This document shows positions 4,308-54,100 of a DNA stretch of 64,000 nucleotides, piece by piece. The stretch comes from Mobula hypostoma (lineage: Eukaryota): NCBI RefSeq assembly GCF_963921235.1, contig NC_086108.1, positions 39,682,001 to 39,746,000 of the forward strand. The letters run 5' to 3'. The notes below the pieces were generated by a model. That model was given only the letters and a program-made list of their open reading frames with translations. It did not search any database and had not been told where the DNA came from. The stretch's first letter is position 1; every line of letters begins with the position of its first letter. A program made the position numbers and the translations under genes.

Positions 4308-6015
4308 ACATAGAAACATAGAAACATAGAAAATAGGTGCAGGAGTAGGCCATTCGGCCCTTCGAGCCTTCACCGCCATTTATTATGATCATGGCTGATC
4401 ATCCAACTCAGAACCCAGCCTTCCCTCCATACCCCGTGACCCCTGTAGCCACAAGGGCCATATCTAACTTCCTTTTAAACATAGCTAATGAACTGGCCTC
4501 AACAGTTTGCTGTGGCAGAGAATTCCACAGATTCACCACTCTCTGTGTGAAGAAGTTTTTCCTAACCTCGGTCCTAAAAGGCTTCCCCTCTATCCTCAAA
4601 CTGTGACCCCTCGTTCTAGACCTCCCCAACATCGGGAACAATCTTCCCGCATCTAGCCTGTCCAATCCCTTTAGGATCTTATACGTTTCAATCAGATCCC
4701 CCCTCAATCTTCTAAATTCCAACGAGTACAAGCCCAGTTCATCCAGTCTTTCTTCATATGAAAGACCTGCCATCCCAGGAATCAATCTGGTGAACCTTCT
4801 TTGTACTCCCTCTATGGCAAGGATGTCTTTCCTCAGATTAGGGGACCAAAACTGCACACAATACTCCAGGTGTGGTCTCACCAAGGCCTTGTACAACTGC
4901 AGTAGTACCTCCCTGCTCCTGTACTCGAATCCTCTCGCTATAAATGCCAGCATACCGTTCGCCTTTTTCACCGCCTGCTGTACCTGCATGCCCACTTTCA
5001 ATGACTGGTGTATAATGACACCCAGGTCTCGTTGCACCTCCCCTTTTCCTAATCGGCCACCATTCAGATAATAATCTGTTTTCCTATTTTTGCCACCAAA
5101 GTGGATAACTTCACATTTATCCACATTAAATTGCATCTGCCATGAGTTTGCCCACTCACCCAACCTATCCAAGTCACCCTGCATCCTCTTAGCATCCTCC
5201 TCACTGCTAACACTGCCACCCAGCTTCGTGTCATCCGCAAACTTGGAGATGCTGCATTTAATTCCCTCATCCAAGTCATTAATATATATTGTAAACAACT
5301 GGGGTCCCAGCACTGAGCCTTGCGGTACCCCACTAGTCACCGCCTGCCATTCTGAAAAGGTCCCCTTTATTCCCACTCTTTGCTTCCTGTCTGCTAACCA
5401 ATTCTCCACCCACACCAATACCTTACCCCCAATACCATGTGCTTTAAGTTTGCACACTAATCTCCTGTGTGGGACCTTGTCAAAAGCCTTTTGAAAATCC
5501 AAATATACCACATCCACTGGTTCTCCCCTATCCACTCTACTAGTTACATCCTCAAAAAATTCTATGAGATTCGTCAGACATGATTTTCCTTTCACAAATC
5601 CATGCTGACTTTGTCCGATCATTTCACCGCTTTCCAAATGTGCTGTTATCACATCCTTGATAACTGACTCCAGCAGTTTCCCCACCACCGACGTTAGGCT
5701 AACCGGCCTATAATTCCCCGGTTTCTCTCTCCCTCCTTTTTTAAAAAGTGGGGTTACATTAGCCACCCTCCAATCCTCAGGAACTAGTCCAGAATCTAAC
5801 GAGTTTTGAAAAATTATCACTAATGCATCCACTATTTCTTGGGCCACTTCCTTAAGCACTCTGGGATGCAGACCATCTGGCCCTGGGGATTTATCTGCCT
5901 TCAATCCCTTCAATTTACCTAACACCACTTCCCTACTAACATGTATTTCGCTCAGTTCCTCCATCTCACTGGACCCTCTGTCCCTTACTATTTCTGGAAG
6001 ATTATTTATGTCCTC
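4308..6015 (-). mobile_element. Young 5'-truncated CR1 LINE
   Basis: (TTTCTATG)n 3' tail at 4308-4332, GGCC-gaat-GGCC 3' motif, uninterrupted RT ORF. Confidence 0.95.
4408..6015 (-). CDS. CR1 ORF2 reverse transcriptase domain and C-terminus, open but 5'-truncated (first ~10 aa of the predicted ORF come from flank)
   Basis: Motifs [53 protein letters not shown]; no stops over about 535 codons. Confidence 0.9.
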   Translation of the reverse strand, partial: EDINNLPEIVRDRGSSEMEELSEIHVSREVVLGKLKGLKADKSPGPDGLHPRVLKEVAQEIVDALVIIFQNSLDSGLVPEDWRVANVTPLFKKGGREKPGNYRPVSLTSVVGKLLESVIKDVITAHLESGEMIGQSQHGFVKGKSCLTNLIEFFEDVTSRVDRGEPVDVVYLDFQKAFDKVPHRRLVCKLKAHGIGGKVLVWVENWLADRKQRVGIKGTFSEWQAVTSGVPQGSVLGPQLFTIYINDLDEGIKCSISKFADDTKLGGSVSSEEDAKRMQGDLDRLGEWANSWQMQFNVDKCEVIHFGGKNRKTDYYLNGGRLGKGEVQRDLGVIIHQSLKVGMQVQQAVKKANGMLAFIARGFEYRSREVLLQLYKALVRPHLEYCVQFWSPNLRKDILAIEGVQRRFTRLIPGMAGLSYEERLDELGLYSLEFRRLRGDLIETYKILKGLDRLDAGRLFPMLGRSRTRGHSLRIEGKPFRTEVRKNFFTQRVVNLWNSLPQQTVEASSLAMFKRKLDMALVATGVTGYGGKAGF

Positions 6016-6309
6016 AAACCTAAGCATTTGGAGGACACAACACATTCAACACTGCACTGACAATCTCTCCTTACATGAAAGCGATTGCAAGGAAATTGCC
6101 AAGATCGGAGAACAACTCAACTCAACCCAATCATTGTACACAGTAACACATGCAAAACCCTGGAGGGACTCAGCAAGTCAGGCAGCATCTATGGAAATGA
6201 ACGTTGACGTTTCGTGCTGATTGAGCTATGTAGCATAATTTTGGAGATAGATCTTCCAACCCGAGACTAGAACTATTGCTGGAACTGACCAGCATCTCAT
6301 AAAGTCATA

Positions 6310-7260
6310 AACGGTCATGGAGCCTTACAGCATAGAAGCGGAGCCTTCAGTCCAACATACCCATGCTGGTGGTGACGCCTATCTATGCTAATCCCATTTG
6401 CCCGCATTAAGCTTCTGATCCTCTACTCCTTCCTATTTAAGTATCCATCCAAATTCATTTTAAGCATTGAAATTGTATCTGCCTCTATCACCACCTCTAG
6501 TAGTTTGTTCCACATAATCACTACTCACTGTGTGGAAATACCTATTCCTCTGATCTCCTTTAAATTTCTCTGCTTTCACCTGAAACTTGTGCCCATTAGT
6601 TTTGGATTCTTCTATTCTGAAAAAAGGACTCTGTCTATCTACTCTATGCATTCAATTCATAGTCGCATTAACGTCTATAAGGTCTTCCCTCGGACTCATA
6701 CGCTCTATTGAGAACAAACCCAGCATGTCCAGTCTCTCATTGTAACTGAAACCTTCTATTCCCAGAAACATCTGGGTGAGACTTTCCGCTCTCTTTCCAA
6801 TGCTACCACATCCTTCCTGTGGTGAGGCAACAAGGAGTGTACACGGTGCACTAACCATGACCTGACCAATGTCACGGTGCACTAACCATGACCTGGCCAA
6901 TGTCACGGTGCACTAACCATGACCTGACCAATGTCACGGTGCACTAACCATGACCTGGCCAATGTCACGGTGCACTAACCATGACCTGACCAATGTCACG
7001 GTGCACTAACCATGACCTGGCCAATGTCACGGTGCACTAACCATGACCTGGCCAATGTTTTGTGCAGCTGAAACATGATGTCCCAGCTCTTATGTTCAAT
7101 ACTTTGGTTATGAAGGCAATCATGCCGAATGTCTTTTTTTTCCCCTATTCATTTGTGTCACCATTTTCATGGACCAATGAACTTGGACCCCAATGTCCTG
7201 GTACATTATTTCTGAAGTCCCTGCCATTTACTCCATGGATCTGTATTTCCCCACAGAATT
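6310..7260 (-). mobile_element. Old CR1 fragment containing a minisatellite
   Basis: Minus-strand remnants GFSYNERLDMLGLFSIER and TNGHKFQV. Confidence 0.7.
6842..7058. repeat. 31-bp minisatellite, 7 copies
   Basis: Unit cacggtgcactaaccatgacctg(a/g)ccaatgt, head to tail; the variant base runs A,G,A,G,A,G,G. Confidence 0.97.
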
Positions 7261-13751: not shown

Positions 13752-16178
13752 TACCTACTCGTAAGGTAATTAAATTAATTAAAGGAACTTACCCGGCCTT
13801 ACCTCACTTGGAGTGAAGCTCGTCCTCAGCCTCTGTTCGCTGAAGCCTCTTGAGCCAAAGCCTCCCTACTCTGTCTGCCTCTACTCCGTTGCCTGCTAAA
13901 AAAAATCAAAGGAGTTGTTTTTCCCCCATTGAGATGTAATTATGAATTTAAGGAGTCCTGACATTGAAACAAGCAGATATTCTGGCACTATTTAGAATTA
14001 CCCTTAGATATTGAAACTATCTGTATTTATTTTATAAAGTATATGTGCAGCCACCAGAGAGGGAAGCTTTCATTCTGTTAATGCAAGGCAAATTTGATCC
14101 AAGAATCGGCAATAAAACCATCTACTCCTCTGCAACATCTGAATCTTCAAGATTACCTTCTTTAAATTCTCACTTATCATATCATGTTTCATCCATTCCT
14201 CTTCTGCATGTTATTCCCAAATTTGAGAAGGGTCACATTAGTTTTGCTCCAGAGCCTTTGAATGCCTGCAATAGCATGTATTGATTTGCTATTGTGCCTT
14301 CTGTCGTCCTCTTGCTCTGTGACTGCCTTGGTGGATTGAGCCGATAGCTTAGTTGAGATTTGTAACCTGTTGTGTGGAATTGTGCACATGAATCGAGCTC
14401 CAGCTGTTCTTCATATACCACCTCACGCAGCCAAAAGATAACGCCAAATATTTCCATATTTATGATATTAACAACATTCCCCTGGCTTGCAAGAGACATA
14501 TCGAGTTTCTCTTAACCTAGCTTTCCAACTTCTGTGATGCATGTGTTTCTCTCAGCCGTCTGGAAGTTATTCAGATCATCCCAAAGCAACTTCAGCTTTC
14601 CCACAGACATGTCTTTTAAGGAAACTTAGCTGTCCTCAGCTAGGGTATCCACTTTGGGGCACACAAAGTCTTTGATTTCCTCCGAAACCCCTCATTCCTT
14701 TGTAGGCTGGGAATTCAGCACCTCAATTTGAATAGAGGTTGGCAGTGTCAATAGGAAGGAGTGAGGGAACTGGAAAAAAAATTAGAAAGGGAAAGATATG
14801 AATAAAAGAATTGACATGGAAAATGACAAAGAAAAATAAGGAAAAGAAAGACAATTTGCTCTCAGACTGAATGAAAGCAGAGAGTAAAGGGTAAAAGTGG
14901 AAGTGAGAAAAGAGGTCTTAAAACGAAAAAGTGTGATTGATAAAGGAGAACAACAGCATGAATCTGAAATTAAAAGAGGAAGTCACAATGCTAATAAATT
15001 ACACATTTCAAACAAATCTTAAGGGTACATCCTTCCTGGCTGATTTGTTTTCGTCTAGTTATATTTGGTCAATTGATAATTATACTACAAGAGAATATGT
15101 AATAATACAGAGGATTTATTTCTGCACACATGTTAGTATTTTGTTAATCTCTATGAGAAAATTAATCTTTACTTCAAATAGATAATAAGAGAATGGCAAA
15201 TAAAAATAACAGCCATATGAAGACTTCCTTCTCACTTCAGTCGCTGCCATTGCACTTGTTTGGTTTGCTATTTGGTACAAATCTGACCTCTTTCAAAAGG
15301 CCCCCCTGCTGCTAAAGTAAGCAACATGACTGATGCAGCGAAAGAAAAAGCAAGGAACACATCCCATGAAGGATACTGCTAACATTAATTTGTAATCCTC
15401 TAGAATATGATTAAACTTTGACCTATATTTTATGATATATATACTCGCGAGAAGGCTCATTATAACCAAATTTATGAACTTTGCCTTAAGAACTAACAGT
15501 TAATGCAATGTAACTGTAACTTCAATTAGGTGATTCCATCAAGGAGACTTCAGCACACAAGAGAAGTCACTTAGCTCAATGTGCTGATTCTAGTAAAATC
15601 TCCAGAGCCATCCCACTTTTATTTATCTATATAAAGATATAGTTTTATCTTTAATGTTATGATTCTATTTCCAAAAGGCATGTGATAACGAATTCTACTG
15701 TATACTCTATCTTATTAGGTCCTTTGCTGTACGTAAGCCTTCTGATTCACCTGCACCAACTTACTTGCTGTTGATCTGCTGGTTACTGGTAAGAATTTTT
15801 ACCTCTTTTTAGGTTGTGCAACTTTAATATTCTGATGCATGTCAGCATTGTAAAATACATGAAACCTCTCTCTCATTCATGCAACTACAGATTAATATTA
15901 AGGGCTATCTTCTGATGAGATCCATTCAGACTGGCCAATAGATAAGCCTATAACTGGGCCAATCCCAAGCACAGCTTCCAGCACCAGAACACGTGCAATG
16001 TACTTGTGAGCTCCTCATGGAGTTTGAGGTGATGGAACCAATTTCCCAGTTCTCACTCTCGAGCATACAATATTTCCTCTGAGCCTGTGTCAGTTTAAAT
16101 TGGCACAAATTCAGTGAGTCCATTGAAGCTAATGGGAGAAATTGTTGACCAGCAGGAAAATAAGTAAGGACTTTCATT

Positions 16179-16388
16179 CAAACAACAGGAATTCTGCAGA
16201 TGCTGGAAATTCAAGCAACACACATCAAAGTTGCTGGTGAACGCAGCAGGCCAAGCAGCATCTATAGGAAGAGGCGCAGTCGACGTTTCAGGCCGAGACC
16301 CTTCGTTCGGCCTGAAACGTCGACTGCGCCTCTTCCTATAGATGCTGCTTGGCCTGCTGCGTTCACCAGCAACTTTGATGTGTGTTGC
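16179..16388. mobile_element. Young Penelope-like pLTR fold-back insertion with 13-bp TSD
   Basis: aaggactttcatt at 16166-16178 and 16389-16401; 16215-16296 is the exact reverse complement of 16307-16388; partial hammerhead core. Confidence 0.9.
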
Positions 16389-17509
16389 AAGGACTTTCAT
16401 TTATTTCATTTCAAATAGTTTTAAATGTGTTGAAGTGTGCATATGGGTTTCAACTTTAACAATCTTCAATGTTATTCACACTCCTTTAAGAGGACCCAAA
16501 TATTATTAATGATGTGAATGTCAATATTCAATTCAATACTGTTGATCACCTTGACAGCTATGAGCCTCACAGGCTGTTGGAGCTGCTCTGTGAGAGCAAA
16601 CAGCTGCTTGTGCTGGCTTGGTCCCTGTGCTGCATTCCATTGTGACCGTGTATTGGGAGCTGGGGTCTCTGCGTAAGACTGCAGTGAAAGACACACTAGA
16701 TAACATCAAATGACCCAAGGACAGACCATCATCATACTGAAGCAGTAAAGAAGCTCCTTCAAACATTATGCATTGTTGGTTATTTTATCATTGTTTTCTG
16801 CTTCAGTCTCAGTTTGGGCTCGGTATAGCATCAGACAAGCCCCAGACTTTCTTCTGTTCTTCAAGTTAACAGAAGGATCACCTAAACTCTCAGATCATAC
16901 AGACTGAAAGACGTGATCCAAATGCTAAATAGTGTTTTTGAAGCTGCACAAAGAAAAGTACTAGCAAAAATTACTGAACCTCCAATGGATAGACTCCCTG
17001 ATTTCCATCCCTTGCCAAAACTATCCTAGAACTTCTTTCCCTCTAAAATCCCCTCACCCCAACATTTTCAACACTCTCACTGAATGGCTCCATCCTCCAA
17101 ATATCATCCCACCTTCCCCCCCCCCACCACCCCCACAACCTTCTGTCTAACCTACATGAAAGCAACATGGGAAGCAGAGCCACTGAGGATTAGAACTGCA
17201 CAGTTAGGATTGGGTGGGGTAGAGCTAGCAGCAAGTTTTGAAGAAGACCGGTAGTGATCGGAAGGTGGCATTGGGTGATTGGAGTTGTATGGGTGAAGGC
17301 AAATGGCAGGTCTCTGGGAAATAGAAAAATGAGGGTATGATTGAGGATTGTAGTGGTTTGTCATCCAGCGAAGAAGGCAAGGATTTAAATTTTTAAAAAA
17401 CTAAATGATACATTTCACTTTATGCTTTGATGTACATACGGCAAATAACTTTAACCTTTAAAAAGGAAAAAGGAGTTGGAGGAAGTAGACAGGATTTAAA
17501 TAAAAAGAA

Positions 17510-21323: not shown

Positions 21324-22542
21324 GTCTACAGAGACTGGAAGTCCAAAACTCAATTTAACACTGTTAAGCTGCTGGCACAGACTTTAATTTCAAGTTACCT
21401 ACCTTACTGATTGCTTCTGTCATCTATATAGAAGGAATGAAAAGGGAAGATTGCAGGGTACATGGAACAACGGGCGGAGTATGAATGACTGCATCATATA
21501 GAGAGGGAACTTCTGCTCCCATTCTAAGAAGTTCTATTAAAAATTCAATTCAAAACACATTTGGCATTAAACACCACTGAAGCACTCTGATTGCTGAACT
21601 GTTCAAATCTATCTGTATGTCTCTCACTTAATAGTGATCAACATATCAAAGCAGCATCATAACACCAAAGTAAGACATTAATCTCTATATCCAAATGGTC
21701 TATTACCTGTCCGGGACATCTGGTTCTAAAACTATAAAATTGGAGCCTATAAATTTGGAATGGGAATAATCTCTGCACAAATCAGATACAACTGCTGTTG
21801 TAGGGATGTGATTTATTCTTTAAAATAAGCCAAAAGCACATTTATTAAGTGCAAATGTGTTATAAATCCTAAGGTGCTTTCAATTCCACTCACTGTTGTT
21901 AACATTATTTAATTTATTCGATTTCTTTACTCAGTTGTGTCAACTAATGTGGGCAGAATTCCTGAATACTTGCTGTTGAACTAATTTTGAAGTAGTGCTA
22001 CTATTATCATCAGCTGTGGTTGACTTTTAATCATGGTATTTGGGCCTGGACTTTCCACTCAGTTGTGGTATTTTACACAAATGGGGTTAGACATGATTCA
22101 AACTGCTGTGATCTTTTGAATTAACCATAAAAATAGGTCTTGTCCATGGTGGGAACAAGGGAATTGATACATTTACTCTTGCAGGAGTTTCTTGAACCAG
22201 AAATCAGTCTCAAGGTCAGTGATCAAAGTTCAAAAGTTCAAAGTAAATTTATTATCAAAGTACATATATGTCACCATACACAGTGCTGAGATTCATTTTC
22301 TTGTGGGCATACGCAATAAATCCAAAAAAACAACAGAATCAATGGAAGACCGCACCAACAGGGCTGACAATCAGTGTGCAAAAGACAACAAACTATTCAA
22401 GTACACAAAGAAAGAAAAAATTAATAATAACATTAAAAATAAATATACAATAAATATTAAGAACATGCAATGAAGAGTTCTTGAAAGTGAATCCATAGGT
22501 TGTGGGAACAGTTCAGTGATGGGGCAAGTGAAGTTGAATGAA

Positions 22543-22652
22543 GAAACATAGAAAATAGGTGCAGGAGTAGGCCATTCGGCCCTTCGAGCCTGCACCGCCA
22601 TTTATTATGATCATGGCTGATCATCCAACTCAGAACCCTGTAACTGCCTTCT
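22543..22652 (-). mobile_element. Short 3' end of the young CR1 family seen at 4308
   Basis: About 95 nt matching 4321-4416 with one mismatch. Confidence 0.9.
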
Positions 22653-22654
22653 CT

Positions 22655-23985
22655 GCACTGGGAACACCTGACACAGCAGATGACCTTGACAGAATTGCAG
22701 ATGAAATGGTGCCTCACCTGGAAATTCTGTTAAGGGGCCTTAATGGTGTTGAAGGAGGAAGTGGATGGGCAGGTGTAGCAATTGTTTTGCCATCAGGGTT
22801 GAATGCCCTGGAGGGAGATCAGTGGGGAGGGACTGAGGTTAGGTGAGACCACACATAGAGGTCATGGGTTAAAGGTGAAATGTGAAATGTTTAAGGGCAA
22901 CATGAGGGGGAACTTCTTCATTCAGAGGGTGGTTAAAGTGTGGAGTGAGCTGCCAGTGCAAGTAGTGGATACGTGGTTGATTTCAATATTTAAGAGAAAT
23001 TTGGTTAAGTACATGGATGGGAGGAGTATGGAGTGCTCAGGTACAGGTGCAGGTTGATGGACTAGGCAGAGTGATTGTTTAGCATAGATAGGTGGGCCAA
23101 AGGTCCTGTTTCTGTGCTGTAGTGTACTGTGACTCTATGATAAGTAGACAACGGAATCATGGAGAAACAATCCCTGTGGAAAGTGAAGAGTGTGAGGGAG
23201 GTAAAGATGTGCTTCATGGGAGGATCCCATTGAAGATGGCAGAAGTTGCAGAGAATAACATACTGGATGCAAAGGCCCATGGGGTGGTGGGTAAGGACAA
23301 GAGGAACTCTGTTTCTGTTGGGGGGGGCAGGAAGATCAGGTGAGGGTGGATATCCAGGAAATGGATGAGATGCAGGTGAGTGCAGCATCAATGTTTGAGG
23401 AAGGGAAATGCTGTTCTTTGAAGAAGGAGGACTTCTCAGATGTTCTCAAAAGGAAAGCCTCATCCTGGGATCAGATGTGGTGAAGACTAAGGAACTGAGA
23501 AAAGTGAAAGGCATTTTTACAAGTGACTCGATGGGAAGAGGTATAGTCAAGATACCTGTGAGAATCAGTGATGGAGACCAACAGATCATGAAAGGATTGA
23601 GTGGTGTCAGAAATGGACCGAGTATATTTAAGAACAGGATTGAAGTTAGAGACAAAGTTGATGAAATTGACAAACTCAGCATAGGAGCATGAAACAGCAC
23701 CAATGTAGTTGTCAATGTAGTGCAGAAAGACTTGGGGAGCATTACTAGTGAAGGCTTGGAACATAGACTGTTCATGTAGCCAATGAAAAGGCAGGCATAG
23801 CTGGGGCCCATGCATGCAGGTGCCCATGGCTACATCTTGGGTTTGGAGAAAGTGGGAGGGGTCAAAAGAGAAATTGTTGAGTGTGAGAACCAGTTTTGCC
23901 AGACGGCGGAGATGGTGGTGGAAGGGAACTGGTTAGGTCTGTTGTGTAGAAAGAAGTGGAGAGCTATAAGTCCTTCCTGATGGGT
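22655..23985 (-). mobile_element. Penelope-like element internal fragment (RT, linker, start of GIY-YIG), interrupted by a + strand CR1 3' end at about 22843-23145
   Basis: MGPSYACLFIGY, FLHYIDNYIG (YIDD-like), RVPLVLTHHP, HFICNSVKVICCVRCSQC. Confidence 0.85.
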
Positions 23986-25489: not shown

Positions 25490-27015
25490 GCATTTTCCCA
25501 CTACAAATGTTAAGCAAACTGGCCTATAGTTACCTGTCTTTTGCCTGCATTCTTTTTAAAACAGTGGTGTGACATTTGCTGCCTTTCAATCTACCAGGGC
25601 CTGCCCCTAGTTCAGAGAATTCTGGCAAATTATGACAAATGTATCCACAAATCTTCCTGCCGAAGGGTTTCAGCCTGAAATGTCAACTGTAGTTTTTTCC
25701 AAAGATGCTGCCTGTCCTGCTGAGTTTTCCCAGCATTTTGCGTGTGTTGCTCGGATTTCCAGCGTCTGCAGATTTTCTTTTGTGTGCTTTAATTTCTGCC
25801 ATTTCTTTCAGTACACTGGGATACTTCACAACAGGATCAGGGAAGTTGTCTGCATTTGGGATACTAGTTTCCTCATCACTACCTCTTCAGTGACAGTGAT
25901 TATATCGAGGTGAACACCTCCCATGGCATCAATAACATCTCTCTTTGCATGTTAGACATGTCTTCCACCATGAAGACCAGTACAAAATAGTTGTCTGTTC
26001 AAGGCCTCATCCATGTACACATTACCCAATATTAATTCCCCTTCTCATCTTCCAAGGGACTCATGTTCACTTTAGCCACTATATAATTATAAAAACTATT
26101 TTTATATGTTTTATATATTTTGAGCTGGATTACTTTCAGAATCTATCTTCCCTTTCCTTATTCTTCCTTTGTGGTTCTTTGTTACATTTTAAGTTTTCCT
26201 TATATTCCAGTTTCCCACCACTCTTGACAACTTTGTATGCATGAGCTTTTAGTTTGGTACCTTCTTTTATTTCTTAAGTTATGCAAATCTGGCTTTCCCC
26301 ACCCTTACTGTCCTTGCTTTTAACTGGAATATACTTTTGTTGTGCACTGTAAAAAATTTATTTGTTACCCTTCCACTGTTCCTCAACTGTCCCACCATGT
26401 AGCTTGTATTCCCAGCCTACACTAGCCTGCTCTCTCATCCCCATTGTAGTTACCTTTGTTTAGGCATAATACACTGTTTTTAGATTGAACTATTGCACCT
26501 TCCATTTGTTTGAGAAATTCAATCATACTATGATCACTCTTTCCAAGAGGATCCCTAACTGCAAGATCATTAATTTCACCTGTCGCATTGAACAGGACAA
26601 AATCTAATTTAACATTTTCCCTTGTAGGTTCACTGACATGCTTTTCAAAAAAAGCTATAGTGGATGTATTCTATAAAGTCCTCCTAAAGACTGCCTCGAC
26701 CAACTTGATTCGCCCATTCTATGTGCAAGTTAAAGTGCTCCATAACAACTGCTGTTCCATTCTTTTATTGTGTGCATCAGATATTTCTTTGCTTTATTGC
26801 CTCTGCCATTGTAATATTATTATTTGGTGCCTTATAGACAACTCCCACCATTGATTTTTTTCCCTTTACTATTCCTAATATCTACTCAGGACTCAATATT
26901 CTTTCACTATAAGCCTGATTTCTTCTTTAATTAAGAGCGCTTCCCTATCTCCCATACCTTCTTGCCTATCCTACCATATTATTTGATATCCTTGGATATT
27001 TAATTCCCAATTTGG
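25490..27015 (-). mobile_element. Old CR1 ORF2 remnant, with a + strand PLE pLTR piece at about 25653-25790
   Basis: Minus-strand NYRPVCLT and endonuclease-like segments; pLTR piece cctgccgaagggtttcagcctgaaatgtcaactg...tctgcagattttc. Confidence 0.65.
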
Positions 27016-27550: not shown

Positions 27551-29614
27551 ACTCACTAATTCCCATTGGCCACCAAATCATACCCCTTTGTACAGTTTTG
27601 TTCAATGACCGTGCTTCAACTACTGGCATTTAGATAAAGTACCCTTGCACTTATTGTCCTTTTAGAATCTAGTAACTTTATGTCATTTCTGTACTTCACT
27701 CTGACTTTTTTCTTTACTAACTTTTGTTTTGTTTTCCTCTGTCTCTGCTGGATTTGCCAACCCTCTGCCATATTAGTTTAAACCTTCCCGAACGGCACTA
27801 GTGAGAGAGCTTGGTGTAGAATGGAGTGAAAGGTGAAGATTTCTGTTATGAAGGATAATACATGATTGGAGTGAAATGTATTTGTGGTTGAGGAAAAATA
27901 GTATCTGAAGGTATATGTGGTTGTGGTGTAGGTCATTGATATTGGTGGGGTAGAGTAGAGACAGCACTTTAAGTTATTTTGGGGGCTGAAATCATGATCA
28001 GCTGCAGATTCAATCACAGTTGCAAGGCATGCAGGATGCAGTATGATGACAATTTAGTCCATATCTTTTTATGTGTGTTGGAAAATTTCCTGATCTTCCT
28101 GCCACCTCCCACTGTAAAGGAAGTTTCCTGATGGATCTGGTCCTTCTCATCTAATTTTCCATGTTAGATTTTGCAAAGCATGGGAAGTCAAACCAGCTTG
28201 TGTTAAAATTGGTAACAATATTAAAATTAAGAGGCCATGAGATGTGAAGTTTTGCCGCGGCTTATAGTGTGAAGTTGCAAGCCTCTTCTGAGAGTATTAG
28301 TTGCTTGCTCTTTTATCCAATCTCCATTAGATTTCAATTTTGGGTCTTGAAAATGTTTAGGATAATTTAAGAAAACTCTATCCACAATTGCTAATTCCCA
28401 TGCTATTTCAATAATTAGTACAGAATTTCCAATGCAAATACAGATATTGGAATTCGGTGCACAAACATTTATGTTGACTATAAAGAGTAAACACGAAGCA
28501 AATATCTTAGTCACATCGTGGTTTGTTGATGAATTAATCAAATTAACTGAATGCTTTCTAAAAATATTTGTATTTGGTTTGTTTTAACTGTAACTTATAA
28601 CAAATAAAGTACTATATGCAATGTTTATCCAAAAAAATACAATGTCATGAAATGCAATCCTAACATTGCGTGTCAGTTTGCTCTTCCACACTATAAACAG
28701 CAGCGAAACTTCACATCATATGACATTTCCTGCCTGGAATTGTTTGGAAACTTAAGCTCTTTAATTGAATGTATTATTCAAACAGTTATTAGACCTGGAT
28801 TCCTCGTATGTGTATGGGACTGTTTGGCACTCAAATACAATTGTTCCAAGCAAAGTTATTTTAAGAACTTAATTAACAGACAAAATTTCTGACACAACAG
28901 ATATTAACATCACAGTCTCAATTCCCGTTTCTTAAAGATGATCATTAACATAGTACTTCTCATGACTTCAGTAATATCTCAATGCACTTTTGAAGTATAG
29001 CACATGTCACACATAATGAACTCTCATAAAGAGTTCTTACTTACTCTGACTCCTCATCTTTTTTTCCAGTTTGATGAAGGGTCTCAGCCTGAAACATTGA
29101 ATATACTCTTTCATAGATCCTGCCTGGTCTGCTGAGTTCCTCCAGTGTTTTGTGTATGTTTCTCATAAAGAGCACTGGAATTTCTTTTTAAGTGTACTCA
29201 TGGAATGTGGCCTTTCTGAGAAGACTAACACTTACTGTTCGTTCTTAAATTTCCTTGAAACAGTGATCATTGTAGATTATTGAATCCTTGCATACTTGAA
29301 AAATATAGGCATGATGTGGTATGATTTTCAATGCATTGCTGTATCAGCTACTGTTGTCAGTTGCTGGTTGTTTCCCATCAATAGAGAATAATTGATAAGA
29401 GGACCTACCCTTGCTACTCATTTTACTTGGATATAGATGCTATGTCGGTAATGAAAACCATTGCTGGGAAGTAACAAACGAGTAATCAAAGATGAAATGG
29501 AAAGCACAGAATGAAGTGTTCTGATGGCCTAATTCTGCTCCTATATTCTATATCATACGTCTTACACAGAGTGGTGATCATAAAAATAATCATCCAGGGA
29601 TCCTAACAATCATT

Positions 29615-29958
29615 CTAGGTCAAGCAGAAGTTCACTAGCTCTTCTTCCAGTCTAGTGTACTGCATTCAACGTTCAGAATGTGGCTCCTCTGGATTGGGTA
29701 AACCAAATACAGATGGGGTGACCACTTTTCCAGGCATCTGCACTGAGTCCACAGGGCAATCCAGAGTTTCTCATTGCTTGGTACTTTAACTCTTTATCTC
29801 AGCTTAACAAATTTCTTTTGCTTCACTTCCATTTGATAAAGGGTCTTCGACCTGAAACATTAATCTTGTTTATCTTCCCACTGATGCCTCTTTACCTGTT
29901 GAGTATTTCCAGCAATTCCTGTTGTTATTTTAGATTCCAGCATCTACAGTTTTTTTGA
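29615..29958 (+). mobile_element. Old PLE 3' fragment (GIY-YIG plus pLTR); another pLTR piece at about 29065-29160
   Basis: SSSLVYCIQRSECG...WGDHFSRHL; decayed tgataaagggtcttcgacctgaaac hammerhead region. Confidence 0.65.
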
Positions 29959-31215: not shown

Positions 31216-33091
31216 CTGGTAGGCACTTTAGTCAGCAAAATTGGCAAGAAATGGAATCAATCATGGGCTCACACCCTGTCTCCAGCTTTCTTGGCCTCCA
31301 GGCTGCACACTCCATTCCAAACCTCACTGAAATTCCTTGGAGACAGCAAAGTGCCACATCGTTCAATCAGCCCGAAAACGCATCATCAAACTGTAAATTG
31401 CCTGAAGGATGTTGCCTTTGGTCACATTGTTTGCTCGCGCCATCTTCTTCAAGACACCCTGTTTAGACTGGTTGTGTAAAAAGGGTATCTGAAAAAATCA
31501 TATATGCGTGAAATCACCCAAGAGGCAGAAAAACAGTATAAGTGTAGAGAGCAGTTCAGGCTTATTAGGAATGGTTAAAGACAATCAAGAAGAATGACAG
31601 AAAGACAGGGTGACTAGAATCCATTCCTTTTCCTTTGATTTCCGTGATGGAGGACTCGTTCATAGGCATTGTTAGTATGTCATTTTTACTTACAGAAATT
31701 AAATCTTTGATTTGGAAATCCTTTGCGCTTTAGAAATTGTTTGTAATATGGAAATGCTTTTTAAGATAAAAATCCTCCGTAAGTTTTAAAAGTGTTTTAA
31801 GAATCTTGTCTGGATTTAAATGTGTATCACTAAAAATGAATGAACTGTGTTTAAACTACTATGTTACCTGGAAGCATCTCCTCCTTAGTAGAGAGGGCAG
31901 ACCCACCACTCATATAGTGGTATTGGCAGCTAAACTCAGCGTGGAAGATAAACAGAAAAGTGAACTTGTTTTTGAAGAGTAGGTAGTTGCAGAATAACCT
32001 CCCTTATGGTACCCATAGCTATCTATATTGGATAGGACTTAACGTATTCGTCTGAATTTAGAACTTCGTGGTCAGCAAACCCGGTATCTCCAAATTTTTC
32101 ATGCTTCTTCAAGATGCTTCAATAGTCACGCAATAGGACATGTTGAATGCACGTACAGACCACTCAAGAAAGCAATTGCTGATAAGGGCAATTATCACAA
32201 CCAACAGACCTCAGATAGTCAGTATGCTTAACCCATTAAACCCATTGCTGTATGCTCTACTCACACATGACTGCACGGCCAAACACCCGAGTAATCAAAT
32301 TGTCAAGTTCGCTAATAACACGACAGTGGTGTGCTCATAACCAACACAGAATAGATGGCCTACAGGTAAGAGATGAAAGAGCTCAAGGGCTGGTGCCAGA
32401 CAAATAACCTCTTCCTCAATGTCAACAAGACAAAGGAGATGATTATCGACTTTAGGAGAACTCACACCACTCACACCCCTTTTTACATCAGCAGCACAGT
32501 TGTGGAAACTGTGAGCAGTTTCAAACTCCTGGGAGCGCACTTCTCACACAATCTCTCATGATCTGAGAACACATCCTACACAGTCAGGAAAGCTCACCAG
32601 CTACTTTCTGAAAAGGCTGAAGGGAGCTAGACAATGCATATCTCTACTCACTTCATTCTACAGATGTGCATCCTAACATGCTGTATCACTGCAAGGGACG
32701 GAAATTGTACCATGGCGGACAGGAAGGCTCTACAACACAAAGTCAAAATTGCCCAAAACATCATCGGCACCAGCCTACCCATCCAAGGGCATATATACAG
32801 AAAGGTGCTAGAAAAGGGCCAGTAACGTCATGAAGAATCCCACCCACCCTACTCATGGACTGTCTGTCATCAAGGATGAGGCCACACATCATATATGCCA
32901 GGATCACTAGACTTAAAAAGTTACTTTCCCCAAGCAATAAGGCTGATTTCAACACCTCCACCCATTAACCCACCCCACCACTACTTTATCACTTCCTGTC
33001 AGTCACTGTATATATTGATACTCCTGCGCCTAATGTCACGTTATAGATAGGCAATCAATCTATGTGTATGAACTATCTTATATATTTATTA

Positions 33092-33375
33092 ACGCAAACA
33101 CGAGAAAATTTGCAGATGCTGGAAATTCAAGCAACACACGCAAAATGCTAGTGGAACGCAGCAGGCCAGGCAGCATCTATAGGAAGAAGTACAGTCGACG
33201 TTTCGGGCCGAGACCCTTCGTCAGGACTAACTGGAAGTAGAGACAGTAAGTGAGGGGGGGGAGGGGGAGATCCAAAATGATAGGAGAAGACAGGAGGGGG
33301 AGGGAAGACGCTAAGAGCTGGGAAGTTGATTGGCAAAAGGGATACAGAGTTGGAGGAGGGGAAGGATCATGGGGC
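33092..33375 (-). mobile_element. PLE pLTR insertion with 10-bp TSD inside the Rex1-like 3' UTR
   Basis: atatttatta at 33082-33091 and 33376-33385; sequence related to the 16179 element. Confidence 0.85.
33192..33229 (-). ncRNA. Minimal type I hammerhead ribozyme motif (PLE-associated)
   Basis: uaguc-CUGACGA-a-ggg-ucucgg-ccc-GAAAC-GUC-gacug: stem I, core, stem II, palindromic ACGU stem III, GUC cleavage triplet. Confidence 0.75.
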
Positions 33376-33727
33376 ATATTTATTATGTTTTTTTAATTAT
33401 TGTGTTCTTTATCTTATTATGTTTTTTTGTGCTGCATTGGATCCAGAGTAACAATTATTTCATTCTCCTTTATACTTGTGTACTGGAAATGCCGTTAAAC
33501 AATCTTGAATCCATTTTCCTTGGACAGATGGGGGCAAAGAAAAAGAACATTCCCCAGTGGATTATTTTTGTGTGCTGGAATTGAAGATCAAAAAGCTGGA
33601 AATGTAATTACTAAATACAGGGAGTTACCAACCATAGATTTGGAAGGTTCCTTCAATGATACCATGCCTATTGACACAGAAACAAGCTGGTTGGTTCTAG
33701 AGCATGAATTACTGAATATGAACCATA

Positions 33728-40220: not shown

Positions 40221-41161
40221 AATTGAAACTTGGTTGTTAGGATGAGTAAAGTTTTACTTTGTGAAACATTATCTTGCAGTACTGGAAGAAGGTTGGATGA
40301 CAGTCTTCTGAAAAGAACAATGGAGGGTGGGGGAAAAACTTATCTTAACTGGGTAGGTGATTCAGATTCTTTTAACACTTTTAGTCCTTGACACATTTCA
40401 TTTACTTTTGCACTTTTTTTAACATTACCTGAAAATGTGCGAGCATAATACATTCATCAGTTCAAGAGGAATATACTTGGAAATCCTCAATATTAAAACA
40501 AGCATTTCATGGGCAGATTGCTTCTTGGTACATTGGAACAGTGAATAATTTTTGATTCCTCTAGGATTTGTGTTATAGTAGTTGCTTAGTATCATTTTAA
40601 GAATTTCTTCCAAGCAAAATGTATAGTTTTCTCTTCCGTTATTGTGAAACTTAAGATCTTAATGCATTTTAATATTTTGAAAACAAGGTAATGAGGCTTT
40701 TACATTTTGTCTACAAATTTGTCCTTGGTTTTCTGTGAAATTTAAACATATTCTTAAGCTGCACCATTAATCACACAACTATCCCCAACCATCCCTCCAT
40801 TTTGTTCTGAGAATTGTTAAGGCATGGAGGACTGCATTCAGTTTAAGCCTATGACAGCTTGTAATAGAGGAACTTCTTGGTCTCTTGCTGTTCCTTTTTC
40901 CACATAGGCACAAGGCCCAATCCTTTTCTTACTACTCTTTCAAAATTTAATGTTTCCTTGTATCTAGAGATACGAATGAAGGAACTTAAGCACTTGTAAT
41001 AAGCCATTCAGCCCATGTCTCTGCTTGCCATCTTTTATCTTTGGTTCACTTTCCTGGTTGTGTCCCTTAAATTTGGTTCCTTGATAGGCCCATCAAATCA
41101 TATCTGCTGACCTCTCACTTTGAGACTAATTCATGTCAGGACACCCAATAAGGGAAGGTGT

Positions 41162-41292
41162 CAAACAAGAGAAAATCTGCAGATGCCAGAAATCCGAGCA
41201 ACACACACATAATGCTGGAGGAACTTAACAGACCAGGCAGCATCTATGGAAAAGTGTACTTCCGATGTTTCGGGCCGAAACCTGTCAGCAGG
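41162..41292 (-). mobile_element. PLE pLTR 3' fragment
   Basis: Homologous to 33092-33230 (tctgcagatgc...gcagcatctatg...gtttcgggccga). Confidence 0.75.
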
Positions 41293-44200
41293 GAAAGTGT
41301 CATCTTTGTTTCCACCCTGTCAAGTTTTCGTATGTTTCAATAAGTTCGTCTTGCTTAAACTTTTTTCGTAGGACAACTCCTTTGCCCAACCCCCATGAAC
41401 CCTAGGAATCAATTTGGTGAAGCTATTTGTATTCTACTGGAAATCTATCCTTCCTAGGTAGAAAGTGTAGACCGGTTTCATGTTCTGTCCCAATGGAGCC
41501 TCTGTAATTGGAACATAAAGTTTAATTTGCTAATTCCTTGCTGATATTTCATGGTAATTTGCACATATTTGTATTTAAAGACAACCAGCTCACACTGAAC
41601 ACCAATACCTTTCAATCTCTCCCCATTTAAAAATTCATTTTTATTTTCTTTTCTACTGTAAAGTGGTTCATCTGGCATTTTCCACATTGTATTCATCCAT
41701 TTACTTAATCTGTGTCTGAAGGCACATAATCCATGCTAGTAGCTCGGCAGCAATATACATTGATGTTCAGTTTTCTTATCCTGATTATTGATGTTGGTTA
41801 TGAACATTTGATATCACAGCATTAAACCCAGTGCCACCCCACCAGTTACCGCCACCAACATGTTATTTCTGCTGTTTCCTTTCCGTTAACTAATCCTCAA
41901 TCCATGCTGGTATATTCCTAGTCTTGTGTTCTCTAATTTTAATTAATACTTTTTCTTTTGTCTTGTGTGCATGTGTGTAAATATATTTTGCTTGTCTGCC
42001 CCTCCTGCTACTTATTTATTATCTTCCTAGCTGCCTCATTTGAACATACTTCCAAATTTAGTATTATCTATAAATTTTATCAAGTCCACCGCAGCCATTT
42101 CATGCTAATATCACTGTGAGTGGGAGGGGGTTGTCGGTGCCTATTGTACTCCATTCTGGAAAACATGCATATAACAACTCTATTTTTGTCTGTTTACCAA
42201 CTTTCCATCTGGGCTAGTCTTCCTGAAAATCATATGAACAAGATCTGATGCATTCATTTTATCTTCCTTCCTTTCTTAAGCCCATCACCCCTGCTGGGGC
42301 ATAGGTCACCAACAAGCAGTTCGGCAGAGTGTTCTGTCGTGGGGCAGTCCTCTTCTTTGAAGATTCTTCCTCTTCAGGGGTGAGGCCTCTGGAGCCTCTG
42401 TTGGAGTTTCTGTAGCTCTGGGGTTTTAAAAGGGATGGTGTTGCTCACCCCATCCTGAACCCTCCTCCTTTAGCATCTGAGCTTGGGACTGTCCATGGCA
42501 GAGTTTTATCCACCTTATGACTGAACAAAAAAAAATCAAGTAGATCAATCAAATACTGTTTGCTGCTTTCAGATCTCTGCTGGCTTTCATTTAATTCCAC
42601 CTCCTGCCTAGTTATTTTGCTCAATTTTGTTGGTTAACTTTACATGAAGTGAACAAGCAAGACATTGTTAGCATTTTCCATTACAGAAATTTATATTTGT
42701 TTGCTCTGTTATTTGAAGTAGTTCTGACAGAGATGAGTTGACTAAACTTTGTTTCATTCTGGTTTTTTTATAGATGTGTTGACATGCATGTGAAATGAAA
42801 ACTATGCTTTTTGAAAATATTGTTCTTAATATTGATTAATCTTTATGTATAAAGAAATGCCTCCAATCAACCATTTTTGATATTTGCCTTGCAGTATTTC
42901 ATCCTGTTTCCCCCCAGTCTTGAACAGCGCACAGGATGATTTTAACTTCATCTCTGAAGGCTCAAATCTTTTTTGGTCTTTTATGGTTGAATAGTTTAGT
43001 TTAGCCATATAACTCTCTTCTCCGATAATGTTTTTTCTCTTCTTAAGCACAGTTTCCAAGGCTAGATCAGTGAACTGATTGTGTGTATTGGGCGGTGGAA
43101 GGGAATCGGTGGAGAGAGTTGCATGTCATTTTTATAGATTCAATTTGCGTTCCTATCGTTTATAGCCATTCCTGTTGTTTTAATTCAAATACTGTGGCTT
43201 CTTGATAGCTCAAATAAAAAAAAATGCTGACTTTCTCTGGAAGGATGTTACATAAGGGTGTAGGAGCAGACATAGATTCTTTGTGCTTATTCTACCATCA
43301 ATAAGATAATGACTGATCAGATCTTGCCATTGATTCTGTTTTTCTACTCTTACTTGAATTCAGTTCGTTTCAAGTCCAGTGGCATCATGCACTTTTTAAG
43401 TGTTATTTTTGATAAGTTGGTGTCTGGGTATTTAATGTCTTTTTCGAAGGAATTAATTCATTCTGAACCCACTGAGTCTAGTGAAACCAAAAATTCTCAG
43501 GTTCAGTTGGTTGGTGATTAGTGGAGTGACTCTGATAATTATTTTTTTTTCTCTCTGTAACAATACTCAAATAATTTCTGGAGCAAAAAACAAACCACTG
43601 GAGGAACTCAATAAGTTGAGCAGTATCAGTTTAGGAGGCAGAGGACGACTGTATCAGGGTCTGAGTGGAGAGGAAGATAGCATAAAGAGGAAGAGCAGAA
43701 GGATGAGACAGGCTGGTATGTGATAGGACTAAGGAGGGATAAACTATGATTGGAGAAGGAGCTAGGTGGGGGCTTCCACCTATCAGCACTTGCCTGTGTC
43801 TCAATAACTCAACCCCTTCCCCAACCCCACTTGCATGATTTTATGTCATATCTGTGGCCTAATTCCATATATCTGTTGTTGGTACTTGGATATTGCAAGG
43901 TTACTAATCTATCATACAGAGACTGGGGCCATTGTTCTGGAAATGAGTTCTAGTACCACCGAGGGAGTTGGATGAAGTTGTATTCAAATAACTAAATAAA
44001 TCTGGAATAAAGAAAATCCATCATTAATAGCAGTCACAAACCATTGAATTGCTACAAGAAGTTATTTGGTTAATTAATTCCTTTAAAAAATGTTGCCCTT
44101 ATCCAACCTATTTTGTAGCTGACTGGAGATCCATCAATGTCATTAACTCTAATTCTCTTCTCACTTCAGTAAGGGATGATAAAATATTTCTGACTTGTCA

Positions 44201-50715: not shown

Positions 50716-53700
50716 TGGTAGCTATGTACGCATGTGCGCATGTGCCGGTCGTGCATGCAGCCTGTTACAGTTGCTCCGTAATTTCTTACTTTTAAACTTT
50801 TTAACTTAGTTATTTGTTTTTTTTTCACACGGTAACACGTTGAAGCTGCCTCCTCTCTAACATGCTGGTGGAGAGAGTTTTACTTGTTTTTTTAGCGCTG
50901 GAATTAGTTACATTTGGATGTGTCTCGTTAGTGTGGCAGCAGGATGGCCGCATTGTTTATTCCAGGGAACAATTGATGGCGCTCATGCCCGCTGGTTTAG
51001 CGAACAGAGCAGCAGACATCCCAGCTGAAATCTGGAGGAAAACACACAGAGGATGCAGAGGGGGATCAAAAAGGTGAGGGAAGAGGACCGGGTTGAGACA
51101 ACAGAGGCTTATGGAGAAGGGAAGTTATAAGCCGTGTCTCCCCTCTCTCATCATGGGAAATGTGAGATCGCTGGGGAATAGAATCGACGAACTGACGGCG
51201 CTTGTCAGGAGTCAGAGAACATTTCGGGAGAGCAGTGTCATGTGCTTTACTGCGACGTGGCTGCATGAGGACATACCTGATCAAAGCGTTTTCATAGATG
51301 GCTTCCAGACCGTTCGAGCTGACCGGAATTGCACTGAGAGCGGTAAGCGTAAAGGAGGGGGGCTGGCGGTTCTGGTAAATAACAGATGGTGCAATCCTGG
51401 GCATATTACGATCAAGGAACGGGTCTGTAGCCCGGATATTGAACTTTTTGCTGTTGGACTCCGGCCATAGTCTCGGCCTGAAACGTCGACTGCGCCTCTT
51501 CCTATAGATGCTGCTTGGCCTGCTGCGTTCACCAGCAACTTTGATGTGTGTTGCTTGAATTTCCAGCATCTGCAGAATTCCTGTTGTTTGCGGCCATATT
51601 ATTTGGCAGGGGAAATCTCGCATGCAATTGTGGTTGTTGTGTACATCCCTCCCTCTGCCAACCCGACGTCGGCGTGTAACATCATTTACACCGTCATAGC
51701 CAGATTACAAACCCAGCACCTGACTGCCCTCATTACCATCTCGGGTGACTTCAACCAGGTTACCATGGCTAGAACACTGCCCAACTTCACGCAGTATGTG
51801 AGCTGTACAACCAGAGGGGAGAGGACTCTGGATTTGATGTACGCTAACGTTAAGGATGCATACAGCTCCTCCCCCCTCCCCTCACTGGGACAGTTAGATC
51901 ACAACCTGGTGCATCTAAAACCCTGCTACGTGCCTCTGGTGAAGAGTAAACCTGCAACCTTGAGGACAGTGAGGAAATAGTCGGAGGAGGCTTATGAGGT
52001 GCTCCAGGGTTGTTTTGAGGTGACAGACTGGCAGGCACTCTGTAAGCCACATGGAGAGGATATTGATGGGCTCACAGAGGGCATCACTGATTACATCAAC
52101 TTCTGTGTGGACTGCAATGTTCCGACAAGAACTGTCCTTTGTTATTCAAATAACAAGCCATGGGTGACAAAGGACATTAAGGACATCCTGAACGCTAAAA
52201 AGAGGGCGTTTAGAGATGGAAACAGGGAGGAGCTGAGGGCAATACAGAGGGACCTGAAAGCCAGGATCAGGGAGGCTAAAGACAGGTATAGGAGGAAGCT
52301 TGAGTGGAAACTCCAGCAGAACAACATGAGAGAGGTCTGGAGGGGGATGAGGACCATCACTGGGTTCCAGCAAACTAGCAACAGAGGAGCTGAGGGCAGT
52401 GTGGCAGGGCCAACGAACTTAACCTGTTCTTTAACAGATTTGACATTGTGACCTCTGCCCATCCCCCATATGAGCCATCTGTTGTCGGCCCCCAATCAAC
52501 ACATGTTCCACTCTCCCCTCCTACCCCTCCTCACGGTGGGCTTCATGGCTGAACAGGTGAGAAGACAGCTGAAACGTCTCAACCCAAGGAAGGCTGCAGG
52601 ACCGGATGGTGTCAGTACCAGGGTGCTCAAAGCCTGTGACCCTCAGCTATGTGGAGTACTTCGCCATGTATTCAGCTTGAGCCTGAGGCTCCGGAGGGTT
52701 CCTGTACTGTGGAAAATGTCCTGTCTTGTCCCTGTGCCGAAGACGCCGTGCCCCAGTGGCCTCAATGACTACAGACCGGTGGCATTGACCTCCCATATCA
52801 TGAAGACCGTGGAGAGACTTGTTCTGGAGCTGCTCTGGCCTATGGTCAGGCCACACTTAGATCCCCTCCAGTTCGCCTACCAGCCCCGACTAGGAGTTGA
52901 GGATGCCATCATCTACCTGCTGAACCGTGTCTGCGCCCACCTGGACAAGCCAGCTAGCACTGTGAGGGTCATGTTTTTTGACTTCTCCAGTGCGTTCAAC
53001 ACCATCCGCCCTGCTCTGCTGGGGGAGAAGCTGACAGCGATGCAGGTGGATGCTCCCCTGGTGTCATGGATTCTTGATTACCTGACTGGCAGACCACAGT
53101 GTGTGTGCTTGCAACACTGTGTGTCAGACAGAGTGATCAGCAACACTGGGGCTCCACAGGGGACTGTCTTGTCTCCCTTTCTCTTCACCATTTACACCTC
53201 GGACTTCAACTACTGCACAGAGTCTTGTCATCTTCAGAAGTTTTCGGATGACTCTGCCATAGTTGGATGCATCAGCAAGGGAGATGAGGTTGAGTATAGG
53301 GCTACTGTAGGAAACTTTGTCACATGGTGTGAGCAGAATTATCTGCAGCTTAATGTGAAAAAGACTAAGGAGCTGGTGGTAGACCTGAGGAGAGCTAAGG
53401 TACTGGTGACCCCTATTTCCATCCAGGGGGTCAGTGTGGACATGGTGGAGGATTACAAATACCTGGGATACGAATTGACAACAAACTGGACTGGTCAAAG
53501 AGCACTGAGGCTGTCTACAGGAAGGGTCAGAGCCGTCTCTACTTCCTGAGGAGACTGAGGTCCTTTAACATCTGCCGATGATGCTGAGGATGTTCTACGT
53601 GTCTGTGGTGGCCAGTGCTATCATGTTTGCTGTTGTGTGCTGGGGCAGCAGGCTGAGGGTAGCAGACACCAACAGAATCAACAAACTTATTCGTAAGGCC

Positions 53701-54100
53701 AGTGATGTTGTGGGGATGGAACTGAACTATCTCATGGTGGTGTCTGAAAAGAGGATGCTGTCTAAGTTGCATGCCATCTTGGTCAATGTCTCCCATCCAC
53801 TACATAATGTACTGGGTGGGCACAGGAGTACGTTCAGCCAGAGACTCTTTCCTCCAAGATGCAACACAGAGCGTCATAGGATGTCATTCCTGCCTGTGGC
53901 CATCAAACTTTACAACTCCTCCCTTGGAGGGTTAGACACCCTGTGCCGATAGGCTGGTCCTGGACTTATTTCATAATTTACTGGCATAATTTACATTTTA
54001 CTATTTAACTATTTATGGTTCTATTATTATTTATGGTGCAACTGTAATGAAAACCAATTTCCCCCTAGGATCAATAAAGTATGACTATGACTGTGACTAA
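50716..54100 (+). mobile_element. Near-full-length Rex1/Babar LINE, disrupted single ORF (APE plus RT)
   Basis: GNVRSL, CFTATWL, VYIPP, SGDFN, TLDL, DHNLV, DYRPVALTS, DFSSAFNT, GAPQGTVLSP, KFSDD; AATAAA plus (ACTATG)n tail; 5' boundary approximate. Confidence 0.92.
51470..51590 (+). mobile_element. Young PLE pLTR 3' end inserted in Rex1 with 8-bp TSD
   Basis: cggccata at 51462-51469 and 51591-51598; identical to the reverse complement of 16179-16299. Confidence 0.92.

Follow-up and report, generated by a model that had tools for sequence, protein, structure and literature searches.

Anatomy of the insertion and its relatives in the window

The 64-kb stretch of DNA analysed here (the window) contains a single perfect inverted repeat with arms of at least 16 bp and a spacer of at most 200 bp, a 210-bp insertion that we call copy A. 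By sequence comparison, the 13-mer at 16166-16178 recurs at 16389-16401, forming a 13-bp target-site duplication (TSD) around the insert, a match whose chance at a fixed position is ~3e-8. Between the two TSD copies, segments 16215-16296 and 16307-16388 are reverse complements at all 82 of 82 positions, separated by a 10 nt spacer (16297-16306), and a 36 nt tail (16179-16214) is present on one side only. Folded as RNA, the insert reaches -184.5 kcal/mol (z -24.9), and none of 200 shuffles was equally stable. An initial annotation of this DNA had given the 82-bp stem, the 36 nt tail, the 13-bp TSD and the 210-bp insert length exactly to the base. It had also placed a 10 nt loop at the centre, and those letters do lie between the arms, but they are ordinary family sequence extending the left arm, and so there is no separate loop. 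On its sequence the insert is better read as a 128 nt tailed arm and an 82 nt tail-less arm placed head to head.

Beginning from the left, the first TSD copy (16166-16178) ends in the letters ATT, which adjoin the tip of the tail; the tail itself (16179-16214, minus strand) spans the interval between two family ends, putative start sites of reverse transcription (RT), at which loose contig ends pile up (16179/16180 and 16213/16214); the tailed arm (16179-16306, element sense on the minus strand) is 5'-truncated at core position A6 of a hammerhead ribozyme motif, the spacer (16297-16306, minus strand) being its extra length over the other arm; the junction at 16306/16307 is blunt, with 0 nt of microhomology; the tail-less inverted arm (16307-16388, element sense on the plus strand) is truncated in helix II of the same motif, with a predicted ribozyme cut at 16321/16322; and the second 13-bp TSD copy (16389-16401) follows.

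Seven single-armed relatives of copy A were found in the window, making one of eight insertions two-armed. Copy B (51470-51590, plus strand) is a single tailed arm identical to copy A at 121 of 121 positions, tail included, within an 8-bp TSD (51462-51469 / 51591-51598), and its tail-side primer ends in CG, not ATT. Copies C (33092-33375, minus strand; 87% identical over 129 columns; 10-bp TSD, 33082-33091 / 33376-33385), D (25655-25790, plus strand; no TSD found) and E (41162-41289, minus strand; TSD of ~11 bp with one mismatch, 41151-41161 / 41290-41300) are older tailed single arms, the first of which carries a complete minimal hammerhead near 33190-33229. Copy F (29034-29160, plus strand) is an older, tail-less single arm, ~75-79% identical, bounded by a 12-bp TSD (29022-29033 / 29161-29172); copy G (29830-29955, plus strand) is a distant tailed relative with no TSD found, and copy H (6142-6220, minus strand) an older tail-less relative with no convincing TSD. 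TSDs are thus present in five of the eight window insertions, of 13, 8, 10, ~11 (one mismatch) and 12 bp for copies A, B, C, E and F, and four of these five TSD-bounded insertions have a single arm. Of the nine arms aligned, six include the tail and three stop at its base. Because copy F is tail-less, one-armed and bounded by its own TSD, the tail base can form an end without an inverted partner. The presence of an identical copy B 35 kb from copy A means either that the young subfamily is very dense or that insertion is local. Copy B splits a LINE endonuclease frame, which reads without a break when the inferred empty site is restored (the Pfam match of the frame's downstream half is weak, E 0.022); the copy B junction creates a stop codon in that frame.

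Other repeats also lie in the window. A 97-bp pair (4320-4416 / 22542-22638) is 99% identical, and its first member adjoins the end of a 545-aa RT frame (4408-6045), which suggests a young LINE 3' end; two LINE RT copies 9.5 kb apart (52116-54099 / 61678-63706) are 92% identical; and self-BLAST detects a near-perfect tandem array with a 62-bp period at 6842-7058. A search for a host gene gave Pfam matches for none of the 147 unmasked frames of at least 48 aa between 1 and 32 kb (296 frames in the window), a threshold that short exons would escape.

Hammerhead motif and probable affiliation with Penelope-like elements

The minus strand of 16277-16306 is the hammerhead motif quoted in the initial annotation, which had both arms of copy A ending within it; they do, the left at core position A6 and the right in helix II. 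From the alignment to copy C and a descriptor match on that copy, the motif is the 3' portion of a type-I minimal hammerhead: it retains helix II, GAAA, the helix III stub and the 3' strand of helix I, with a predicted cut at 16282/16281, whereas C3-U4-G5 is missing, as is the 5' strand of helix I. The descriptor, which we composed from PMC4209133 plus recall, gave two matches on both strands of the window, one of them copy C. Rfam returned 0 matches at gathering score across the 64-kb window, a local Rfam search gave no hammerhead among its nine matches at E up to 10, and copy C does not fold more stably than its shuffles (z -0.96), so the hammerhead call rests on the descriptor. Local Rfam hits to mir-2131 and mir-3926 were rejected as generic hairpin matches, at 45 bits against cut-offs of 92 and 82.

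With the left arm starting at A6 and the right inside helix II, neither arm can fold the ribozyme. The arms overrun the predicted cut by 25 and 15 nt in copy A and by 18 nt in copy B; the templates were therefore uncut there. Among the minimal type-I hammerheads of metazoan Penelope-like elements (PLEs) described in PMC4209133, copy C finds its counterparts in the core, the bulged base before helix II, the G10.1-C11.1 pair and the palindromic helix III stub; the two motifs of copy A differ in being cut short and in having a G-U pair at 10.1-11.1, and self-cleavage is not expected of them. The same source also reports dual hammerhead motifs 100-700 bp apart on opposite strands. Scored by eye, 6 of the 9 arms in the window, belonging to copies A, B, D, E and H, end in a stretch of ~20 nt inside hammerhead helix II or the core (equivalent to 16292-16311). 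Such clustering may reflect stalling of RT at this structure, with a count biased by the detection of these arms through their similarity to copy A.

We consider it very probable that copy A is a single insertion made by a PLE, the affiliation that the initial annotation had proposed. It is borne out by the hammerhead in copy C (type-I minimal and placed in the terminal repeat or pLTR, complete there and partial at copy A), two fixed ends ~35 nt apart, variable 5' truncation, TSDs of variable length (8-13 bp in five of eight window insertions), a tail of 30-40 nt on some ends only (36 nt at copy A), and an inverted, 5'-truncated, tail-less copy placed head to head at copy A, an arrangement repeated in 15 of 15 fold-back joints (the best-supported 15 of 171). 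The claim that inverted, truncated pLTRs lacking the short 3' tail are a known habit of PLEs also agrees with published copies: the available text of PMC8557442 gives an inverted 5'-truncated copy with a one-sided 30-40-bp tail as typical of PLE insertions, and that of PMC3846280 describes inverted-repeat PLE insertions with 8-10-bp TSDs in rotifers. Pen2a_Av and Pen2_Av of Adineta vaga (PMC3846280; scheme in PMC8557442) resemble copy A in that an inverted, 5'-truncated copy stands head to head with the main copy, a tail of 30-40 bp is present at a single end, and one short TSD encloses the unit. They differ in that both arms of copy A stop within 128 nt of a start site, leaving no ORF and no full pLTR, and in that copy A has a 13-bp TSD, a junction without palindrome or overlap, and a ray-like vertebrate host. 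Copy A is, in this respect, an ordinary example of a pattern already described for PLEs.

No copy of the terminus linked to an RT/GIY-YIG ORF was found in the window, in scans of sequence collections or in peptide searches, and exact-pattern scans of metagenome, viral and prokaryotic genome collections returned 0 loci. The window does contain a degenerate Penelope-type fragment with RT, thumb and Cys-linker (22712-23984, minus strand), whose best named matches are in Hypanus and Amblyraja (7 hits among 135 candidates). It is split by a LINE fragment at ~22860-23140 and ends near the start of the endonuclease. No pLTR copy is attached to it, so it establishes that PLEs occur in this genome, but is not proof that the terminus belongs to one, and we treat it as context only.

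Behind the hammerhead of copies C, D and E, an ATG frame is open through the tail (33093-33176, minus strand; 25705-25794, plus; 41154-41243, minus), and 16 of its 30 residues do not vary among the three; the corresponding frame of copies A and B is displaced by a single base. This frame could be the start of a PLE ORF, or merely reflect the low odds of a stop codon in so short a stretch. A search of 1.84 billion proteins with the 30-aa frame (E up to 0.001) gave a single hit, a Mobula prediction in which inspection by eye revealed nothing RT-like, and the frame was set aside as a PLE ORF start. For a 42-aa frame of the insert, 3 candidates yielded 2 hits, each of them a Mobula prediction with a pLTR piece. 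Together with the Hypanus and Amblyraja matches of the RT fragment, these hits make a ray the most likely host. Three Mobula protein predictions in all (P0008, P0009, P0010) carry pieces of the terminus, one of them in a STARD3 N-terminal-like isoform, and exonisation or mis-prediction is possible for these.

Family ends, fold-back joints and age

Contigs of 4 of 24 sequencing runs were compared: 58,966 of run X1, which may be the source of this DNA, 37,248 of X5, 8,464 of X13 and 4,079 of X16. The copy A family is plainly abundant in them, although these figures do not count copies. Among the rows listed, family ends in X1 and X5 accumulate at two places ~35 nt from each other, the tip of the tail and its base. 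For X1 these piles hold 326 and 191 loose ends at 16179/16180, and 155 and 147 at 16213/16214; the piles listed for X5 hold 295, 207 and 164. The tail-tip pile lies at 16179/16180 in X1, X5 and X16 and at 16179 in X13, and the tail-base pile at 16213/16214 in X1 and 16213 in X5, with 5 contigs at 16214 in X16 and no tail-base pile among the rows listed for X13. The tail-less end of copy A (16215) is 1-2 nt off the pile of contig ends, a gap that A-rich flanks could produce.

A total of 171 joints were recovered, and the best-supported 15 of these all run from left arm to right arm, as in fold-back copies with break points other than those of copy A. Their spacers range from 6 to 64 nt, which makes the 10 nt of copy A unremarkable, and 7 of the 15 are common to X1 and X5. 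Microhomology of at least 2 nt occurs in 10 of these best 15 of 171 joints. It averages 1.87 nt over the 15 (null 0.63, P = 2e-4) and 2.15 nt over the 13 joints that lie inside the reference (null 0.63, P = 3e-5), in a sample of joints selected by the tool as the best 15 of 171, with 137 joints containing inserted letters left out. Such microhomology is as expected for end-joining and is also expected under self-priming. The ribozyme cut was considered as a turning point and rejected, given that 0 of 30 arm ends in the best 15 of 171 joints lie within 1 nt of it.

The two arms of copy A differ at 0 positions from each other, as do copies A and B. The insert has a CpG observed/expected ratio of 0.76, compared with 0.28 for the window. 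Absence of differences upholds the earlier description of the insertion as very recent in part; its age is only bounded, the 95% upper limit on divergence being ~0.9% per lineage. Elasmobranch substitution rates are slow, so that this bound leaves room for millions of years. The sources of the sequencing runs include organisms A and B (not to be confused with copies A and B), which differ by ~1.8% here. At 16275, where the window has C, letters other than T make up 34% of the summed depth in X1, 29% in X16, 2% in X5 and ~76% in the more distant X13. These figures lend weak support to a lineage-specific expansion in organism A after the A/B split, a conclusion that must be tempered by the marker being common in X13 and by contig depth not being copy number. 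Run X16, which we guess to be RNA, covers the repeat and almost none of its flanks, and is uninformative for the copy A locus. The right flank at 16458-16753 has zero contig cover in all four runs, probably a filter effect, and the joints listed include no empty site with one copy of the TSD.

Proposed priming and joining of the two arms

We interpret copy A as the product of dual priming, a reading that we regard as probable, if by no wide measure: both strands of a 13 nt staggered cut would have primed RT, one at each internal start site, and the aborted cDNAs would have been joined head to head. A PLE endonuclease, probably acting as a dimer, would nick both strands of the AT-rich site 13 nt apart; here the TSD is observed and the nicks are what we infer from it. 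The 3' end of the top strand (after ...ATT at 16178) would then prime a cDNA at the outer start site, the tail tip, which stops after 128 nt, and the 3' end of the bottom strand would prime a second cDNA at the inner start site, the tail base, which stops after 82 nt. Both cDNAs pass the hammerhead cut, by the overruns given above, as the sequence of the arms shows, on a template still intact at that point. Repair would finally join the cDNA ends head to head, bluntly at copy A, and with gap filling yield the order TSD, tail, arm, inverted arm, TSD. In favour of dual priming, the tailed single arms B, C and E and the tail-less arm F are each bounded by a TSD, so either end can adjoin a TSD alone, although the evidence from copy F is one old case (~75-79% identical). 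Against it, the junction of copy A itself is without microhomology, and the CG at the tail-side primer end of copy B departs from ATT.

Much of this reaction has a parallel in vitro. The Anolis PLE protein of PMC11167929, for which a dimer model is given, cleaves both strands and extends them, initiating at two internal positions that delimit the tail. It has a preference for ATT, works without primer homology and accepts uncut RNA as its template. Its element PAc (Poseidon of Anolis carolinensis) thus shares with copy A the two internal start sites bounding the tail, the cutting and extension of both strands, ATT at one primer end, the lack of homology and the uncut ribozyme. It differs in that the PAc ORF starts at hammerhead stem II, where the frame of copy A closes at a stop, and the available text of PMC11167929 draws no link to inverted copies or TSDs. 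A model combining two start sites with two primed strands was not found stated in the literature searched or in that text; Evgen'ev & Arkhipova 2005 and Arkhipova 2006 may hold it.

In L1 twin priming, the second target strand primes a second cDNA, giving an inverted segment, a TSD and a microhomology join. The likeness to copy A lies in each of these: second-strand-primed cDNA, inverted segment, TSD, and microhomology join. The difference is that the second L1 primer anneals inside the RNA and produces non-overlapping segments, whereas the cDNAs of copy A start at fixed neighbouring sites and overlap, which results in a palindrome.

The main rival to dual priming keeps the same PLE origin but invokes self-priming: a tailed cDNA would fold back near its 3' end, copy itself and be resolved at the tail base by the endonuclease. 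In its favour, the arms of copy A match completely and differ little in length (spacer 10 nt); because they are identical, two primed cDNAs and one self-copying cDNA are inseparable at this locus. Junction palindromes are read in this way in PMC3846280, the tail is attributed to endonuclease resolution in PMC8557442, and the microhomology at the junctions of other copies fits too. We nevertheless rate self-priming as unlikely, weakened as it is by a cDNA end with no usable hairpin (the DNA fold of 16270-16306 is -1.7 kcal/mol, and 192 of 200 shuffles are at least as stable), by the blunt junction of copy A, and by the tail-less copy F, which has its own TSD and no inverted arm. Spacers of up to 64 nt at other junctions (best 15 of 171) also count against it, as does the match between the tail ends and the two in vitro RT start sites of PMC11167929.

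Other explanations fare worse. Non-autonomous PLE derivatives exist (bioRxiv 10.64898/2026.07.22.740005), and the frame that is open in three older copies and shifted by one base in the young subfamily could mean a non-autonomous source; that the 210-bp hairpin is itself a propagating, SINE- or retrozyme-like unit copied whole is still improbable, given that its identical sister copy B is single-armed with a different 5' end, that the 15 joints all differ (best 15 of 171, among which copies with exactly the junction of copy A would show no joint), and that a tandem array and a complete ribozyme are both lacking. The animal non-LTR retrozymes of that preprint resemble copy A in being ORF-less, PLE-derived and hammerhead-related, but consist of tandem units each with a complete hammerhead; copy A is one head-to-head pair in which both motifs are truncated, and membership in that group was rejected. 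Less credible again is a fold-back chimera introduced by library preparation or assembly. Perfect palindromes are a known artefact of long-read sequencing and amplification, and neither the centre nor the right junction of copy A is represented among the contig pieces listed. A chimera would not, however, create a direct repeat of 13 bp whose two copies each adjoin a unique flank, nor would it end as close as 1-2 nt to the second end of the family, and the left junction is matched at 0 differences by an X1 contig (equal to 15200-16201, reaching 23 letters into the insert against a bridging threshold of 31), with the same kind of junction in two organisms. Least credible of all is a DNA transposon of the MITE or fold-back type, whose terminal inverted repeats would be the 82-bp arms. 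The insert is short, ORF-less, hairpin-shaped and TSD-flanked as such an element would be, but its left repeat is not terminal, being 36 nt from the TSD, TSD length varies from 8 to 13 bp, and family members share a fixed end on one side but have ragged ends opposite; the reading is already contradicted by the single-armed, TSD-bounded siblings.

Copy A is, then, a real, young, dead-on-arrival piece of a Penelope-like element. Its product is without an ORF or a complete ribozyme and is most likely inert; it would yield an 82-bp dsRNA, the possible endo-siRNA or ADAR substrate of the initial annotation, only via a host read-through transcript. Production of siRNAs from Penelope inverted repeats is already published, PMC3681739 reporting siRNAs that match the inverted regions of rearranged Drosophila Penelope copies, and a genome rich in perfect hairpins might carry a read-through dsRNA load.

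As one inert copy among many, copy A serves as a clear textbook example and as a single entry in a data set. Its broader interest is that the origin of tandem and inverted PLE structures is named an open mechanistic question in PMC8557442, and that in short young copies of this kind the two primer ends, the two start sites and the junction are all preserved in ~240 bp. Tabulated across the genome, such copies would put dual priming to a direct test. We suggest, as a tentative proposition that we hold at somewhat less than even confidence, that ray genomes contain many young, miniature PLE insertions with two arms, a set recording in vivo dual-strand, dual-start priming by a dimeric PLE protein followed by end-joining, a step not yet demonstrated for the class. 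If this is true, one reaction explains the tail, the inversion and the TSD together, and the tabulated set could decide between dual priming and self-priming.
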